From Bacteroidales bacterium (GTDB lineage Bacteria > Bacteroidota > Bacteroidia > Bacteroidales > ML635J-15): DNA of 64,000 nucleotides. This document shows, piece after piece, positions 2,193 through 7,285 of the stretch. Location: positions 265,726 through 329,725 of the forward strand of contig JAGCDJ010000019.1 of the NCBI GenBank assembly GCA_017651185.1, given 5' to 3'. Both the position numbers and the translations under genes were made by a program. Below the pieces are notes generated by a model, which had not been told where the DNA came from, searched no databases, and worked only from the letters and a program-made list of their open reading frames with translations. How positions within the stretch are numbered: the first letter of the stretch is position 1; each line of letters starts with the position of its first letter.

Positions 2193-3614
2193 CTATGCAA
2201 ATAGGTCGTCAAGAGTTACGACTTTCTGCAGTCGGCGTGAGTATAGGTTGTCTTGTAGTCCAGCAGCGGCTATCATTGTGAGCATTAACGATTTTCTTGT
2301 GCCAGTAGTCTTTCTAAATGTCTCTATTTTGTTGTGCAAGATGTTGTCGTAATCTTTTGTAATCTCAAATTCGTGGCGGGTATATTTCATTTCACAGATA
2401 TTTATTGTCTTATCAGCACGATCGATAAGCAAGTCAATCTGAGATCCTTTGCTTGTAGAGTCTCCTGTAAAACTCCAACTACAAGGTGTATTGCGTATGC
2501 CACTTATGCCTAATGCAGACAATATCATGTCAATGTGATGCAGACACAATATCTCGAAAGCATATCCGCACCAATTGGCGTATGATGGAGTTTCCTGCAT
2601 TTTTATCCAATATTGCCGTTGTGCAGAACTTTTGTCCTTCATATATTTAAAGTAGAACAAGGAGAATTGGTCAATAAGTTGATAAAGAGCATCTTTCTTT
2701 GTTTTGCCAAATGGTGTATAACTGCGGATGAACTCGCATTGTTCAAGTTCGCGTAGAGTAGTGGTGAAATTTCCGTTGTTTACGCTGCCGGTAGCTTTTA
2801 GTAGTTGTAGTCGCGTCATTCCCATTCCTTTAGAAGCAAGTGCGTTTACTATGGCAATGTGGTTGTTTGCCCGTTTGAACAATGAGGAATATAGGTTGTC
2901 AAACTCCATTGCAAGTTCGGCGCCACGCGAAAAACATAGAGCATCAATGTTTTGTGCTACGCTTTTGTCTTGTTCAAACAGAGTGAGATAGTATGGTATT
3001 CCGCCCATAGCCATGTAGCATTCGGCAATTTCTTCGCGCTCGTATCCGAATCCGTTGGTTTTGAAAAAACTTTCGCATTCGCGAAGCTTAAAAGGAGAAA
3101 CAAGTATCTGATGGGTAACTCTATTGTGAAGTCCGCCTCGGTTATTGATAATTTTGTTCAGTATCCACGATGTGGAAGAACCGCATACAATCAACTTTAT
3201 ATCAGTTCGGTACGATGCCCAACTATTCCAAAAGTGTTCCAGTGCGCTGACAAATCCGCTTCCTTTTCCATCCATCCATGGCATTTCGTCGATGAATATT
3301 ATTTTTGTGCATTTGTCAAGGCTGTCAAGATATTTTTCAAGCATTTGGAATGCGGAAAGCCAGTCCTTTGGAATGTCTGGACAATCGCAGTACCTTTGCA
3401 TAGCTAGCTGGAAGTTTTTTAGTTGTTCCTTGTTTGTAACATTTGCCATGCCTGTGATAGAGAATGCGAAATTCTGACCTAGTACTTGTTTTATCAGAAA
3501 TGTCTTTCCGACTCTGCGTCTGCCATATACGGCAATAAATTCCGACTTGTCCGAAGCTACGTATTGTAACAGACGTTTTTTTTCTGCTTCCCTCCCTATT
3601 AAAGTCTCTTTCAT
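2193..3614 (-). CDS. AAA+ ATPase (Arch_ATPase/ATPase_2-like) with C-terminal DUF234-type PD-(D/E)xK-like nuclease module
   Basis: Walker A VYGRRRVGKTF, Walker B IIFIDEMPWM, and C-terminal IDLLIDRADKTINICEMKY (D...E-x-K). I moved the start to the internal ATG (MKETLIGRE) because a TAACTTTG -7 box lies inside the longer track ORF. Confidence 0.8.
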   Translation of the reverse strand: MKETLIGREAEKKRLLQYVASDKSEFIAVYGRRRVGKTFLIKQVLGQNFAFSITGMANVTNKEQLKNFQLAMQRYCDCPDIPKDWLSAFQMLEKYLDSLDKCTKIIFIDEMPWMDGKGSGFVSALEHFWNSWASYRTDIKLIVCGSSTSWILNKIINNRGGLHNRVTHQILVSPFKLRECESFFKTNGFGYEREEIAECYMAMGGIPYYLTLFEQDKSVAQNIDALCFSRGAELAMEFDNLYSSLFKRANNHIAIVNALASKGMGMTRLQLLKATGSVNNGNFTTTLRELEQCEFIRSYTPFGKTKKDALYQLIDQFSLFYFKYMKDKSSAQRQYWIKMQETPSYANWCGYAFEILCLHHIDMILSALGISGIRNTPCSWSFTGDSTSKGSQIDLLIDRADKTINICEMKYTRHEFEITKDYDNILHNKIETFRKTTGTRKSLMLTMIAAAGLQDNLYSRRLQKVVTLDDLFA

Positions 3615-3635
3615 GTTGTGTTGTGTTTTGTGGCG

Positions 3636-3643
3636 CAAAGTTA
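3636..3643 (-). promoter_or_regulatory. Bacteroidetes -7 promoter box (TAACTTTG) for the AAA+ ATPase gene
   Basis: Plus-strand caaagtta reads TAACTTTG on the minus strand and matches the TAnnTTTG consensus. It sits 22 nt upstream of the ATG at 3614. Confidence 0.5.
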
Positions 3644-3656
3644 TAAAAAGTTTTAT

Positions 3657-3723
3657 ATTGCGCCAAGAACTATTTTATATTTTGGCGTAAAGTGATATGA
3701 ATATATAAGATTGCGCCAAGATG
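3657..3723. repeat. 67-nt direct repeat, copy B (just 5' of the AAA+ ATPase promoter)
   Basis: See copy A. Same order of boxes: ATTGCGCCAAGAAC, TTTTGGCGTAAAGTG, GATTGCGCCAAGATG. Confidence 0.8.
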
Positions 3724-3856
3724 AAGCAAGTTGCTTTTTTTGAATTATAAAACTTTATAACTGTTTAAAACCAGAAAATACAAGTAGCAGATGAACTTTT
3801 GCGGAAAATCTAACCTAATGTTTGTGGTGTGTTGCCATTGTTTCAAATATTTTTTC

Positions 3857-3864
3857 TAATTTTG
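3857..3864 (+). promoter_or_regulatory. -7 promoter box (TAATTTTG) for the DUF3791/DUF3990 triad
   Basis: Matches TAnnTTTG, 35 nt upstream of the ATG at 3899. Confidence 0.45.
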
Positions 3865-3898
3865 GCGGTGTAAAAATAAAATTGGTATTAATTGTATT

Positions 3899-4117
3899 AT
3901 GGACATTCGCGACAAGATAGAATACCTTGTGATTTTCATAGGAGAATTTGCTAGGCATCACAACATTAATGTTCGTGATACTTACCTGTATTTGCGAAAA
4001 TACAAGGCTTTGGATTTCTTGGAACAGCAGTACGATGTTGCCCATACTATGGGATTCCGTTATATGGTTGATGCAATGACAGATTACTGTAAACGAAACG
4101 GAGGATATTTGTCATGA
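3899..4117 (+). CDS. small DUF3791-like protein (triad 1, gene 1)
   Basis: 72 aa. Its stop overlaps the next start in an ATGA (4114-4117). It follows the same pattern as the 74-aa ORF at 20788-21012 (..KY..L.YLE...D..HT). Confidence 0.7.
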   Translation: MDIRDKIEYLVIFIGEFARHHNINVRDTYLYLRKYKALDFLEQQYDVAHTMGFRYMVDAMTDYCKRNGGYLS

Positions 4118-4590
4118 AGCTATATCACGGCACATACATAGATTTCGATACAATTGATCTCTCAATGTCAAACAAAGGCAAAGATTTTGGCAAGGGTTTC
4201 TATTTGTCTGACAATTATGAACAGGCTTTTCAATTAGCAACATTCAAGGCGATACAATTTAATGGAGAACCTAATGTCTTGACTTTTGATTTTGACGAAA
4301 CGGCCTTGACCAATGGAGAGTTGTCGTTTATGAAATTTGACGAGTATAGCCGCGAATGGGCTGACTTCATATTGAAAAACAGGCAGAACGAAATAGATGA
4401 GAATATTCATAGGTATGATGTAGTTTATGGTCCTATTGCCAATGACAAGGTCGGAGTTCAAATCCGCAACCTGATTGAGCAAAACATTGATATGAATCTG
4501 TTTTTGGAGCGACTTAAATATATGCACGGCATTACTTTCCAATATTTTTTCGGTACGGAAAAAGCAATTTCAAAACTTGTTAAGCTATGA
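4114..4590 (+). CDS. DUF3990-like protein (triad 1, gene 2); possible ADP-ribosyltransferase-fold enzyme
   Basis: 158 aa with MKLYHGT, FGKGFYLS, YEQA, EWADFIL and DVVYGPIANDKV. These are shared with the 161-aa ORF at 20306-20791. Confidence 0.7.
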   Translation: MKLYHGTYIDFDTIDLSMSNKGKDFGKGFYLSDNYEQAFQLATFKAIQFNGEPNVLTFDFDETALTNGELSFMKFDEYSREWADFILKNRQNEIDENIHRYDVVYGPIANDKVGVQIRNLIEQNIDMNLFLERLKYMHGITFQYFFGTEKAISKLVKL

Positions 4591-4802
4591 GCAATTTCGA
4601 ATATATGAACGAATGCACTGCAAGAGATGTAATTGCAATGTTGGTTAGAAAACAGAATATGCCCATATCAGACGCTATGGATTTGTTTTACAATTCCAAA
4701 ACCTTTGAAAACTTGAATAATCCGGAAACGGGTCTTTATTTTCAAAGTCCCGTTTACATTTACGATATATTAGAACAAGAATTAAAAACGAAAAAACAAT
4801 AA
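4587..4802 (+). CDS. small DUF3791-like protein (triad 1, gene 3)
   Basis: 71 aa. Its start overlaps the previous stop in an ATGA (4587-4590). Resembles the 75-aa ORF at 20082-20309 (ISDA...Y.S.TY..L). Confidence 0.65.
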   Translation: MSNFEYMNECTARDVIAMLVRKQNMPISDAMDLFYNSKTFENLNNPETGLYFQSPVYIYDILEQELKTKKQ

Positions 4803-4863
4803 TGTAGAGATTTAAAACATATTATTAACCAAAGCATTAGCTATTATTCGCATTTAAATCAAA

Positions 4864-5040
4864 AGCGTCGGAAACTGATGATTGAAAATATCGGATAAAG
4901 CAATTTCACGGAAGCCAAGGTTCCGTATGTATCAGGTAAAGTTAATGTTCACACCATGGTGTGGGCTTGACTACTGATACTGCGGGGTTCATCCGACGCT
5001 CCTCGTGAATGCGATAGAAAGGCTCGCACCTTTCTTTTGT
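4864..5040 (+). ncRNA. candidate structured RNA or leader (unassigned family) ending in a terminator-like hairpin
   Basis: The ORF track lists no ORF in 4803-5083. A 9-bp closing helix AGCGTCGGA (4864-4872) / TCCGACGCT (4992-5000) encloses three elements: hairpin ACGGAA-GCCAAGG-TTCCGT (4908-4926), helix GTATCAG (4929-4935) / CTGATAC (4974-4980), and the palindrome CACACCATGGTGTG (4950-4963). It is followed by AGAAAGG-CTCGCA-CCTTTCT + TTTGT (5016-5040). Confidence 0.4.
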
Positions 5041-5049
5041 CCCGATAAG

Positions 5050-5081
5050 TGATTGATAGCATTGCAAAAAACTATCAATCA
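5050..5081. promoter_or_regulatory. 10-bp perfect inverted repeat immediately upstream of the methyltransferase start codon
   Basis: TGATTGATAG (5050-5059) and CTATCAATCA (5072-5081) are separated by 12 nt, and the ATG is at 5084. This could be an operator or a start-occluding hairpin. Confidence 0.4.
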
Positions 5082-5083
5082 AG

Positions 5084-6115
5084 ATGGCAGGAAATAAAAG
5101 TTTACATGCCGCCAGTAAGGCAAAGGAAGATGAATTTTATACTGAACTTTCAGACATTGAAAACGAATTAAAACACTATAAAGAACATTTTAGAGGGAAA
5201 ATAATTCTATGCAACTGTGACGATCCGAGAGTAAGCAATTTCTTCCATTATTTCAGTTATAATTTTGAAGTTCTTGGATTAAAGAAACTGATTACAACTT
5301 GTTACAAGAGCCAAAATCGCGACCTTTTCAGTCAAAATGATTCCGAAAAGGCAATATGGTTGGAGTATTTTGGAGATCGCAATGGTAATCGCGTTCCCGA
5401 CCCCGAAGAAATTGGCATACATTATCTTAATGGCGATGGTGATTTTCGTTCAGCGGAATGTATAGAATTGCTAAAAGAAGCCGATATTGTAGTTACCAAT
5501 CCTCCATTCTCGTTATTTAGGGAATATGTGGCGCAACTGATTAAATATGACAAGAAATTTATAATATTAGGCAATCAAAATGCAATAACATATAAAGAGA
5601 TTTTTGCATATATAAAGACAAATCAATTATGGTTAGGTAGTACATTGTCTTTTGCAAAATTTAAAGTACCAGATTACTATGAAGCGCGAGCGACAAGATT
5701 TTGGATTGACGAGTCTGGACAAAAGTGGCGAAGCATGGGAAATATCTGCTGGTTTACAAATCTAGATATAGCCAAACGACATGAGGAAATAATTCTTTAT
5801 AAGTCTTATACCTCAGAAGAATATCCAAAATATGATAATTATAATGCAATAAACATTAATAAAGTGTCTGAAATACCAATGGATTATTATGGTGTAATGG
5901 GTGTTCCTATTACTTTTTTGGACAAATACAACCCAGATCAATTCGAAATTGTTGGAGATAGCCGATATCACGATGGACAAAGCGAAGCGGACGACATTAA
6001 TATAATCGGTGGAAAATTGTTATACAGGCGTATCCTTATCCGCCGCAGACAAAATCCATACGGACAATCCGAATCGCAAATGTCAATGGCGGCTGACAAG
6101 GGTGTGGAAATTTAA
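5084..6115 (+). CDS. EcoRI-family N6-adenine DNA methyltransferase
   Basis: 343 aa. The N-terminus AKEDEFYTELSDIENELKHYKEHFRGKIILCNCDDP and the catalytic VVTNPPFSLFREYV (NPPF) are as I recall for the EcoRI_methylase family. Confidence 0.8.
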   Translation: MAGNKSLHAASKAKEDEFYTELSDIENELKHYKEHFRGKIILCNCDDPRVSNFFHYFSYNFEVLGLKKLITTCYKSQNRDLFSQNDSEKAIWLEYFGDRNGNRVPDPEEIGIHYLNGDGDFRSAECIELLKEADIVVTNPPFSLFREYVAQLIKYDKKFIILGNQNAITYKEIFAYIKTNQLWLGSTLSFAKFKVPDYYEARATRFWIDESGQKWRSMGNICWFTNLDIAKRHEEIILYKSYTSEEYPKYDNYNAININKVSEIPMDYYGVMGVPITFLDKYNPDQFEIVGDSRYHDGQSEADDINIIGGKLLYRRILIRRRQNPYGQSESQMSMAADKGVEI

Positions 6116-6202
6116 AATGGTAAATTATATTATTCCCAAAATTGTAAAAATAGGAATAAAACAATTATAAAATAACATTGATAACAATAAAATAGGAACA
6201 AT

Positions 6203-7285
6203 ATGCAAATCGAACTACACAAAATTTCAGTCCGCGACCTTACAAACGGCTATACCGACAATGCTGAAAAAGGTGTGACCGCATACGGTGGAAAACTGGA
6301 TGTACGCCCACCGTACCAACGCGAATTCGTATATGGCGAAAAACAGCGCAATGCTGTGATTGATACTCTTATGCAAGGTTTTCCTTTAAATGTAATGTAC
6401 TGGGCAACCCGCGAGGATGGCACCTACGAAATCATTGACGGTCAACAGCGTACAATCAGCATTTGCCAGTATGTGAGCGGAGATTTTGCCTTCGATATGC
6501 GCTATTTCCACAATTTGGAGAAAGATGAAAGGGAGCAAATTCTAAACTATGAACTGCAAATCTACATTTGCACTGGCACCGACAGCGAAAAACTGAAATG
6601 GTTCAAGACAATAAACATTGCAGGCGAGAAACTTACCGACCAGGAACTGCGCAACGCAGTATATGCCGGTTCGTGGGTAAGCGATGCCAAGCGGTATTTC
6701 AGCAAAAACGGCGCACCAGCCACAAAAATAGGTAGCGACTATCTGTCTGGGTCTGCAATTCGTCAAGAATATTTGGAAACGGCGATATCTTGGATTTCAA
6801 AGGGCAACATTGAAATTTATATGGGCAACCATCAGCACGACCCCAACGCCATTGCACTATGGAACCATTTCAACAGCGTAATTAACTGGGTAAAAGCAAT
6901 ATTCCCGAAGTACCGCAAGGAAATGAAAGGTGTAGAATGGGGAAATTTGTACGAACTGTATAGCAAGGATACTTGGGATGCTTCCGAAATGGAGAAAGAG
7001 GTTGCGCGACTAATGGCCGACAGCGATGTGAAAAAGAAAAAAGGCATCTACTCCTATGTTTTCGACCACGACGAACACCATCTGGACATTCGTGCATTCG
7101 ATGACAACACCAAACGTGAAGTTTATGAGAAACAAGGCGGTTATTGCAAAGTCTGCGGCAAAATCTTCAAAATAGAAGAAATGGAGGCCGACCACATAAC
7201 TCCGTGGAGCAAAGGCGGTCACACAGTTGCCGAAAACTGCCAGATGCTATGCAAGGAATGTAATAGACGTAAAAGCGGAAAATAA
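6203..7285 (+). CDS. DUF262 (ParB/Srx-like, DGQQR) domain fused to a C-terminal HNH endonuclease
   Basis: 360 aa with IIDGQQRTISI near the N-terminus. The C-terminus CKVCGK...EADHITPWSKGGHTVAENCQMLCKECNRRK is a CxxC...H-N-H...CxxC pattern. Confidence 0.8.
   Translation: MQIELHKISVRDLTNGYTDNAEKGVTAYGGKLDVRPPYQREFVYGEKQRNAVIDTLMQGFPLNVMYWATREDGTYEIIDGQQRTISICQYVSGDFAFDMRYFHNLEKDEREQILNYELQIYICTGTDSEKLKWFKTINIAGEKLTDQELRNAVYAGSWVSDAKRYFSKNGAPATKIGSDYLSGSAIRQEYLETAISWISKGNIEIYMGNHQHDPNAIALWNHFNSVINWVKAIFPKYRKEMKGVEWGNLYELYSKDTWDASEMEKEVARLMADSDVKKKKGIYSYVFDHDEHHLDIRAFDDNTKREVYEKQGGYCKVCGKIFKIEEMEADHITPWSKGGHTVAENCQMLCKECNRRKSGK

Follow-up and report, generated by a model that had tools for sequence, protein, structure and literature searches.

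A conserved, probably two-state leader RNA preceding restriction-modification genes in Bacteroidales

In a stretch of 64,000 nucleotides (nt) from contig JAGCDJ010000019.1 of a Bacteroidales bacterium (hereafter the window), positions 4803-5083 separate a plus-strand unit of three genes (the triad, DUF3791/DUF3990, 3899-4802) from a methyltransferase gene. Only two open reading frames (ORFs), of 40-46 amino acids, are found mechanically in this gap. The original prediction, made from the letters alone, had placed a structured RNA of about 175 nt at 4864-5040 and had considered a riboswitch- or attenuator-like leader acting in cis or, alternatively, an independent small RNA. In our study, it has been confirmed that positions 4832-5083 of the plus strand form a single conserved 5' leader of about 255 nt with two alternative shapes. 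Structured RNA is indeed present in the predicted interval, whereas conservation runs from about 4832 up to the ATG, which adds about 30 nt at the 5' end and about 45 nt at the 3' end. We estimate a probability of roughly three in four that this region is the 5' leader of a methyltransferase-nuclease mRNA and acts in cis as a two-state RNA, and it probably decides the expression of the restriction-modification genes behind it.

The structure was first recognizable in the folding energy. The interval 4864-5040 folds at -59 kcal/mol on the plus strand (z score -3.41), and none of 200 dinucleotide shuffles was as good; the minus strand gave a z score of -2.0. The entire leader (4826-5100) reached -84.2 kcal/mol with a z score of -4.93. 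Conservation and covariation in related genomes, which had been set beforehand as a test, were found to be strong on 89 distinct homologues. In this comparison, 44 pairs of the core helices (P0-P5) were scored, and slid alignments served as controls. In an unfitted MAFFT alignment of 18 sequences (A2), 91.0% of the cells were paired against 33-38% in the slid versions, and double-change cells numbered 104 against 12-30. The alignment A4 (27 sequences) showed 95.0% paired cells against 33-41% and compensatory changes at 33 of the 44 pairs, whereas A5 (89 distinct sequences) showed 93.7% against 33-43%, compensatory changes at 39 of the 44 pairs and a covariation score of 0.505 against 0.05-0.09 in the controls; the pair counts of A4 and A5 are inflated, as these alignments were fitted to the model, and the unfitted A2 and A6 agree with them. 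The strand is fixed by G.U-type pairs. P5 keeps U.G and G.U pairs, which on the opposite strand are A.C mismatches, hence the functional molecule is the plus-strand RNA. Compensatory structure on one strand is what is expected of a structured cis-regulatory 5' leader RNA.

The domain is built as a four-way junction of P1-P4, with P5 lying within P4 and P0 closing the whole. Its parts, all on the plus strand, are as follows.

4849-4856 / 5006-5013, plus strand: helix P0, CGCATTTA / TGAATGCG; 98% of cells paired, compensatory changes at 5 of 8 pairs
4864-4872 / 4992-5000, plus strand: helix P1, a perfect 9-base-pair (bp) inverted repeat; 97-99% paired, compensatory changes at 9 of 9 pairs (89 sequences)
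4875-4879 / 4890-4894, plus strand: hairpin P2, CTGAT / ATCGG; 94% paired on A4 and 81-92% on A5
4908-4913 / 4921-4926, plus strand: hairpin P3, ACGGAA / TTCCGT; 81-82% of cells paired, compensatory changes at 5 of 5 modelled pairs
4929-4935 / 4974-4980, plus strand: helix P4, which encloses P5; 92-96% paired, all pairs compensatory
4947-4955 / 4958-4966, plus strand: hairpin P5, GTTCACACC / GGTGTGGGC; 96-98% paired, conserved in sequence, the presumed anti-antiterminator
4983-4991, plus strand: junction strand CGGGGTTCA between P4 and P1, nearly invariant in A2 and A6
4904-4910 / 5003-5009, plus strand: PK, a pseudoknot or alternative helix, TTCACGG / TCGTGAA; 82.9% paired, 22 double-change cells against 3.9 in shuffles

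The predicted helices were largely recovered in this architecture. The 9-bp closing helix, the 6-bp hairpin at 4908-4926 and the 7-bp helix at 4929-4935 / 4974-4980 correspond to P1, P3 and P4, and each is maintained by compensatory changes in homologues, while the 14-nt palindrome (4950-4963) noticed within the 7-bp helix is the core of hairpin P5. The sequence of P4 is hypervariable, yet its arms are complementary in almost all members; P3 also varies in sequence with its pairing retained, and in the leader L018 one pair of P2 is lost in compensatory fashion. PK overlaps P3 and P0 and is missing in a divergent subclass; it is a possible helix with moderate support, in the main class only. 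A leader peptide, for which a short ATG frame inside P2 of the window copy was the candidate, was rejected, as by inspection the members of the CTGATTT type do not have this frame. One leader (L011:1431-1500, G022:C126) carries an insert of about 70 nt with hairpins of its own (CTGCCTTAGGGCAG...) between the 5' motif that begins the leader and P0, and this joint hence tolerates insertions.

Behind the domain, two pairings were found to compete for the same nucleotides.

5016-5022 / 5029-5035, reaching to 5041, plus strand: hairpin T, AGAAAGG / CCTTTCT with loop CTCGCA, followed by TTTTGT; 91% paired, compensatory changes at 6 of 7 pairs (106 full-length leaders)
4958-4967 / 5021-5030, plus strand: helix AT, the 3' arm of P5 (GGTGTGGGCT) with the loop and the beginning of the 3' arm of T; 93.0% paired, compensatory changes at 8 of 10 pairs

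T is the 7-bp hairpin with a T run which had been expected downstream, and it is terminator-like by its stem and U run, the latter being present in the main class. Double-change cells numbered 84 in the AT helix, whereas shuffles gave 13 and slid controls 2-34, and the AT duplex was found at -12 kcal/mol or below in 96 of 104 leaders (median -17 kcal/mol). AT has the nucleotides 5021-5030 in common with T and 4958-4966 in common with P5. The three overlapping pairings P5, AT and T are hence all under selection, in the manner of an anti-antiterminator, an antiterminator and a terminator, and conserved, mutually exclusive terminator and antiterminator pairings of this kind characterize attenuators and riboswitch expression platforms. 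The antiterminator proposed originally, TGCGA with TCGCA, exists in the window copy, but its full pairing is possible in only 7 of 61 scorable distinct leaders and without any compensation; TGCG belongs to the 3' strand of P0, and the conserved alternative is AT. As a separate observation, the 3' arm of T (CCTTTCT) with the preceding CACC bears what we take to be a likeness to the 3' end of Bacteroidetes 16S rRNA (CACCUCCUUUCU), which may be a coincidence. If it holds for 5016-5035 of the window, the 5' arm AGAAAGG would resemble a Shine-Dalgarno sequence, and this too may be coincidental.

These pairings suggest how the leader could work. In the first state, P0 would close the P1-P4 junction and the inner hairpin P5 would be formed; P5 would sequester its own 3' arm, so that T could form and transcription would stop 5' of the genes. 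In the second state, the 3' arm of P5 would pair with the loop and 3' arm of T as an antiterminator, T would be blocked and RNA polymerase would continue into the operon. The P1-P4 junction with its nearly invariant joining strands would be the likely sensor, being stabilised or disrupted by a ligand or a host factor. Constrained folding of the window copy gave -82.0 kcal/mol for the core with T and a hairpin at the start codon (described below), -78.6 kcal/mol with a long-range helix replacing the start hairpin and -69.9 kcal/mol when AT was enforced. By default, the thermodynamics hence favour the closed state, in which the terminator can form, and read-through would need a factor or kinetic control. 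The same strong preference for the closed state would also suit a constitutive structured leader without any sensing, which damps and insulates horizontally acquired cassettes by leaky termination, mRNA stabilisation and a fixed translational throttle, and whose alternative pairings are only folding intermediates. The element does travel with mobile restriction-modification cassettes of many types, and restriction-modification operons need low and balanced expression. However, the compensatory changes which keep AT at 8 of 10 positions are hard to explain if AT never forms functionally, and the junction strands are nearly invariant; we consider such a leader unlikely.

The 3' part of the leader adds a second possible level of control, through the following parts.

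5050-5059 / 5072-5081, plus strand: start-codon hairpin, TGATTGATAG / CTATCAATCA, a perfect 10-bp inverted repeat; 94.8% paired
4832-4848, plus strand: 5' motif AAGCATTAGCTATTATT, nearly invariant in all members
4834-4836 / 5063-5065 and 4840-4846 / 5054-5060, plus strand: long-range helix LR, the 5' motif with the 5' arm and loop of the start hairpin

In the window, the start hairpin ends 2 nt 5' of the ATG at 5084, and such a hairpin, with a median energy of -12 kcal/mol, stops at a distance of 0-5 nt from the ATG in 101 of 117 distinct leaders. An LR duplex of 14-17 bp with -10 to -15 kcal/mol is possible in all the members with a start hairpin; compensatory changes were seen in L153, L117 and L019, and RNAalifold predicts LR as the outermost helix. 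On A6, LR was 97.8% paired but invariant, since the pattern used to fetch the sequences had fixed the motif. A translational layer is proposed, in which the hairpin abuts the ATG and its 5' arm and loop may pair with the 5' motif instead; LR formation would release the 3' arm of the hairpin together with the ATG and would free the initiation region.

At the level of DNA, the symmetry of these hairpins could also mark an operator palindrome for a regulator like a C protein, belong to an invertible promoter as its inverted repeat, or shape single-strand DNA into a folded site. In the window copy, the core of P5 and the start hairpin (5050-5081) form perfect palindromes as DNA, and C-boxes are frequent operators in restriction-modification systems. 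However, G.U-type substitutions in P5 and in the start hairpin (L018 and L149) keep the RNA pairing and break the DNA symmetry, while in L153 and L152 the start hairpin has a different sequence which is yet complementary, and these variants point to RNA pairing rather than to a DNA operator. No helix-turn-helix (C-protein) gene is present between 3899 and 7285 and no regulator gene lies nearby, no inverted copy of the 5' motif was found within 700 nt upstream in 239 instances, and blastn gave no match in the plasmid and phage collections PLSDB and INPHARED. Moreover, an operator does not take the form of a branched structure of about 250 nt that includes long-range helices. A DNA element is thus very unlikely. 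Two specific candidates were rejected: for an invertible (phase-variable) promoter there are no flanking inverted repeats, and 15 of the 239 instances had only low-complexity chance 11-14-mers at 700 nt or less upstream; for a C-box operator there is no linked C-protein gene, and the symmetry is kept as G.U RNA pairing and not as DNA.

The distribution of the leader was followed from the genome of the window outwards. A second copy on another contig of the same genome, with 85% identity over about 260 nt, lies directly 5' of a paralogous EcoRI-family methylase gene, which is followed by a gene for 363 amino acids. Between the two methylases, identity is only 67% at the protein and 72% at the DNA level. 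The leader is hence more conserved than the genes behind it, and comparison of the two copies indicates that selection acts on the leader itself. By BLAST, 11 of 38 other genomes of the genus carry one to three copies each, at 69-88% identity. A pattern scan, whose first pattern was a 15-mer giving mostly chance matches, was filtered with nhmmer; the members then found were in rumen and gut Bacteroidales metagenome-assembled genomes (MAGs), Prevotella MAGs, an uncultured Bacteroides and Bacteroides rodentium JCM 16496, whose copy (L114) lies 5' of a type III mod gene. A covariance model of the leader core (R1) found strong matches in five further families of Bacteroidales, and a single weak match (E 4e-4) outside the order in a search of about 146 genomes of the phylum, so that strong matches seem to be essentially confined to Bacteroidales, as judged by how the records are named. 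A scan of metagenomes from rumen, human gut and fermenter samples added 120 loci (L165-L284), which were fetched with a pattern fixing the 5' motif. An origin from plasmids or phages was rejected on the blastn results given above.

Short relatives with a core of about 125 nt (L154-L158, L160) were found by the model search in five or six other families of Bacteroidales. They have a 5' motif of the type GCGTTAGCTTTTATT, P0, P1, P4/P5 and a 3' CCACGC-TTTTT, which is again complementary to the 3' arm of P5, whereas P2, P3 and the start hairpin are absent. These relatives lie 20-200 nt 5' of genes for secreted, lipoprotein or outer-membrane beta-barrel proteins, and their 5' A-run can pair with the 3' U-run, like in a stand-alone RNA. 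Such forms bear on the possibility that the element is mainly a free-standing small RNA, which is about 200-270 nt long, has its 3' end at T and acts in trans, and for which the proximity of a methylase is incidental. The structured part does end in a terminator-like hairpin, and some short variants lie 100-200 nt from the next ORF with the terminal pairing of stand-alone RNAs. On the other hand, the long form is conserved beyond T up to the ATG, the distance of its start hairpin from the start codon is fixed at 0-5 nt and the element always adjoins an ORF in the sense direction, which makes an independent RNA quite unlikely. The leader and small-RNA readings are compatible in so far as a terminated leader fragment could act in trans as well.

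The position of the leader was found to be constant. In all cases it lies in sense orientation directly 5' of an adjacent ORF, as in a leader transcribed behind a promoter; the promoter is deduced from Bacteroidetes-type -7 boxes (TAnnTTTG). Such a box stands 50-90 nt 5' of the motif where the DNA upstream is intergenic, and about half of the distinct loci have one, well above chance. With these boxes upstream, the 5' motif itself is expected to be transcribed. They also speak against the 5' motif being a promoter of the extracytoplasmic function (ECF) type, which was rejected for the copies with a box. In the locus L113 the order of triad, element and methyltransferase is repeated, with the leader directly behind the triad stop as in the window. 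In many of the metagenome loci L165-L284, an A-rich word (A/C)GAAACAGA(A/C)A recurs about 35-50 nt 5' of the 5' motif; with the promoter box on one side and the motif on the other, it may add another conserved element to the transcript.

The genes behind the window copy are as follows.

5084-6115, plus strand: EcoRI-family adenine methyltransferase gene, the first gene under the leader (PF13651, E 3.5e-141)
6203-7285, plus strand: GmrSD_N (DUF262) and HNH nuclease gene, the presumed second gene of the operon (PF03235, PF01844)

ARAGORN found no transfer RNA or transfer-messenger RNA in the window. The genome holds two paralogous pairs of a methylase gene and a gene of about 360 amino acids, each with a leader of its own (window 5084-7285 and G000:C2:17071-19287), and the partner in the window is the DUF262-HNH nuclease. 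Just 5' of the promoter of the paralogous leader and methylase, five copies of a unit like the repetitive extragenic palindromes (REP), CGACCTC-N3-5-GAGGTCG, were noticed (L002:1120-1360, G000:C2).

Across all the loci, the restriction-modification genes downstream of the leader belong to at least eight unrelated families, with PF13651 in the majority. Those in the genome-derived members are EcoRI-family methylases of several subfamilies (PF13651), a Tsp45I type II nuclease, a ResIII helicase, two type III mod methylases (N6_N4_Mtase), an MmeI-like methylase and an HsdM type I methylase. About 15-20% of the downstream genes are other than restriction-modification genes and mostly concern the cell envelope; the three in the genome-derived members encode a DUF2334/polysaccharide deacetylase, an MBOAT-like protein and an Acyl_transf_3 protein. 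Among the metagenome loci with an ORF, an EcoRI-family methylase follows in 87 of 110, a sample biased by the fetch pattern, and the others include a C5 methylase, an Mrr-type nuclease (Mrr_cat_2), ResIII, GT2 glycosyltransferases, a sulfatase-family membrane protein, lipoproteins and DUF3990. The DUF3990 cases (L188 and L230) place the leader 5' of a gene from the family of the middle gene of the triad. The association is with restriction-modification as a whole, and less strictly with envelope modification; that the leader is not tied to one protein argues against autoregulation by the methylase.

What could move the leader between its two states may be approached from the same data. A first possibility, which refines the two-state leader, is a metabolite-binding riboswitch, in which the P1-P4 junction is a small-molecule aptamer whose ligand locks P5 and favours T. 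The multi-helix junction domain of about 135 nt, its nearly invariant joining strands, the hypervariable but covarying stems, the covarying terminator/antiterminator platform behind it, the presence of copies in many genomes (up to three per genome) and the lack of a consistently linked protein gene would all suit this. However, the downstream genes have no common substrate or pathway, as they encode methylases dependent on S-adenosylmethionine (SAM) but also a type II nuclease, a helicase, GT2 proteins, acyltransferases and lipoproteins; no likeness to any Rfam riboswitch was found, and a short variant without P2 and P3 exists. We hold this possibility only tentatively. A second, equally tentative, is attenuation controlled by a protein or by an RNA acting in trans, in which a Bacteroidales host factor binds the junction or the 5' motif and sets the balance between P5 and AT. 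PyrR, TRAP and BglG-type proteins are examples of factors which drive attenuators elsewhere. The 5' motif, the arms of P5 and the start hairpin are conserved in sequence besides their pairing, which suits recognition by a trans factor, although three-way complementarity could also explain this conservation. Strong matches are seen within one order only, the varied downstream genes suggest a general host signal and an active opener is plausible as the closed state is thermodynamically favoured. Against such a factor, no candidate was identified and no gene is linked to the element.

A few observations weigh against the two-state leader acting in cis as we propose it, in addition to the inflated pair counts of the fitted alignments. 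T may not be a canonical terminator in every member, since in the divergent subclass (L109, L107, L035 and L039) its stem is longer and no U run follows. In the window copy, the AT state lies about 12 kcal/mol above the closed state with T, and the LR pairing of the 5' motif shows almost no testable covariation. No common cofactor is shared by the downstream genes and hence no ligand suggests itself. Moreover, no promoter box could be recognized in the window copy between the triad stop (4802) and the motif. Lying directly behind that stop, the copy may be served by the promoter of the triad and may be transcribed by read-through from the triad operon. In favour of a cis-regulatory leader stand the position, the promoter box, the covarying terminator/antiterminator set and the hairpin abutting the ATG, which together bear out this option of the original prediction.

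The family was not recognized among known RNAs, as had been anticipated. Rfam 15 gave no match at E <= 10 for window 3500-6500 and no relevant match at E <= 1 in eight related loci, short variants included, and the element was not found to be described in full-text literature searches or in two motif catalogues (PMC2864571, PMC5737381). As far as we found, the family, its architecture and its association with restriction-modification are undescribed, whereas its logic is of a kind known from attenuators and riboswitch platforms. Three-structure attenuators, such as the pyr leader of Bacillus subtilis with PyrR and riboswitch platforms, likewise have three overlapping, mutually exclusive pairings in a 5' leader, a common middle strand (here the 3' arm of P5) and a U run after the last hairpin. 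Unlike in pyr-type attenuators, to which no similarity in sequence or model was found with Rfam, the anti-antiterminator lies deep within a large domain, a four-way junction which two long-range helices close. Also unlike them, the antiterminator strand binds T at its loop and not at its 5' arm, and a separate translational hairpin is attached. Four-way-junction orphan riboswitch candidates and the SAM-I architecture also show conserved joining strands and a terminator platform, and many of the leader-associated genes use SAM. However, no Rfam riboswitch matched (E <= 10), the consensus differs and the associated genes are neither biosynthetic nor for transport. The C proteins and C-boxes of type II restriction-modification systems likewise act directly 5' of the genes, and the leader, like them, would time or limit expression. 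In C control a DNA-binding protein sits on a promoter operator, whereas the leader is an RNA fold on the mRNA and has no C gene.

Restriction-modification systems need controlled expression or they kill the host, and this control is known to be exerted by proteins, as with C proteins and methylase autoregulation, or by antisense RNAs. A wider role of the leader can be speculated on this background. It is conceivable, though doubtful at present, that it represents a new class of RNA sensors specific to Bacteroidales, whether riboswitches or switches which bind a factor, by which one signal would gate a regulon of 'self-marking and surface variation', with an RNA in place of the controller proteins used elsewhere. 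Such a regulon would bring together lipoproteins, enzymes which modify glycans and the envelope, and operons from at least eight unrelated restriction-modification families.

Our study has revealed a well-supported orphan switch, with more than 100 distinct sequences, covariation in nearly all helices and two competing folds under selection. It is a target for the discovery of a ligand or partner and a possible regulatory part for Bacteroides engineering. The carriers are abundant gut and rumen Bacteroidales, and in these a leader common to restriction-modification genes of types I, II and III and to genes for envelope modification would mean that defence and surface variation are under a new layer of control, based on RNA.

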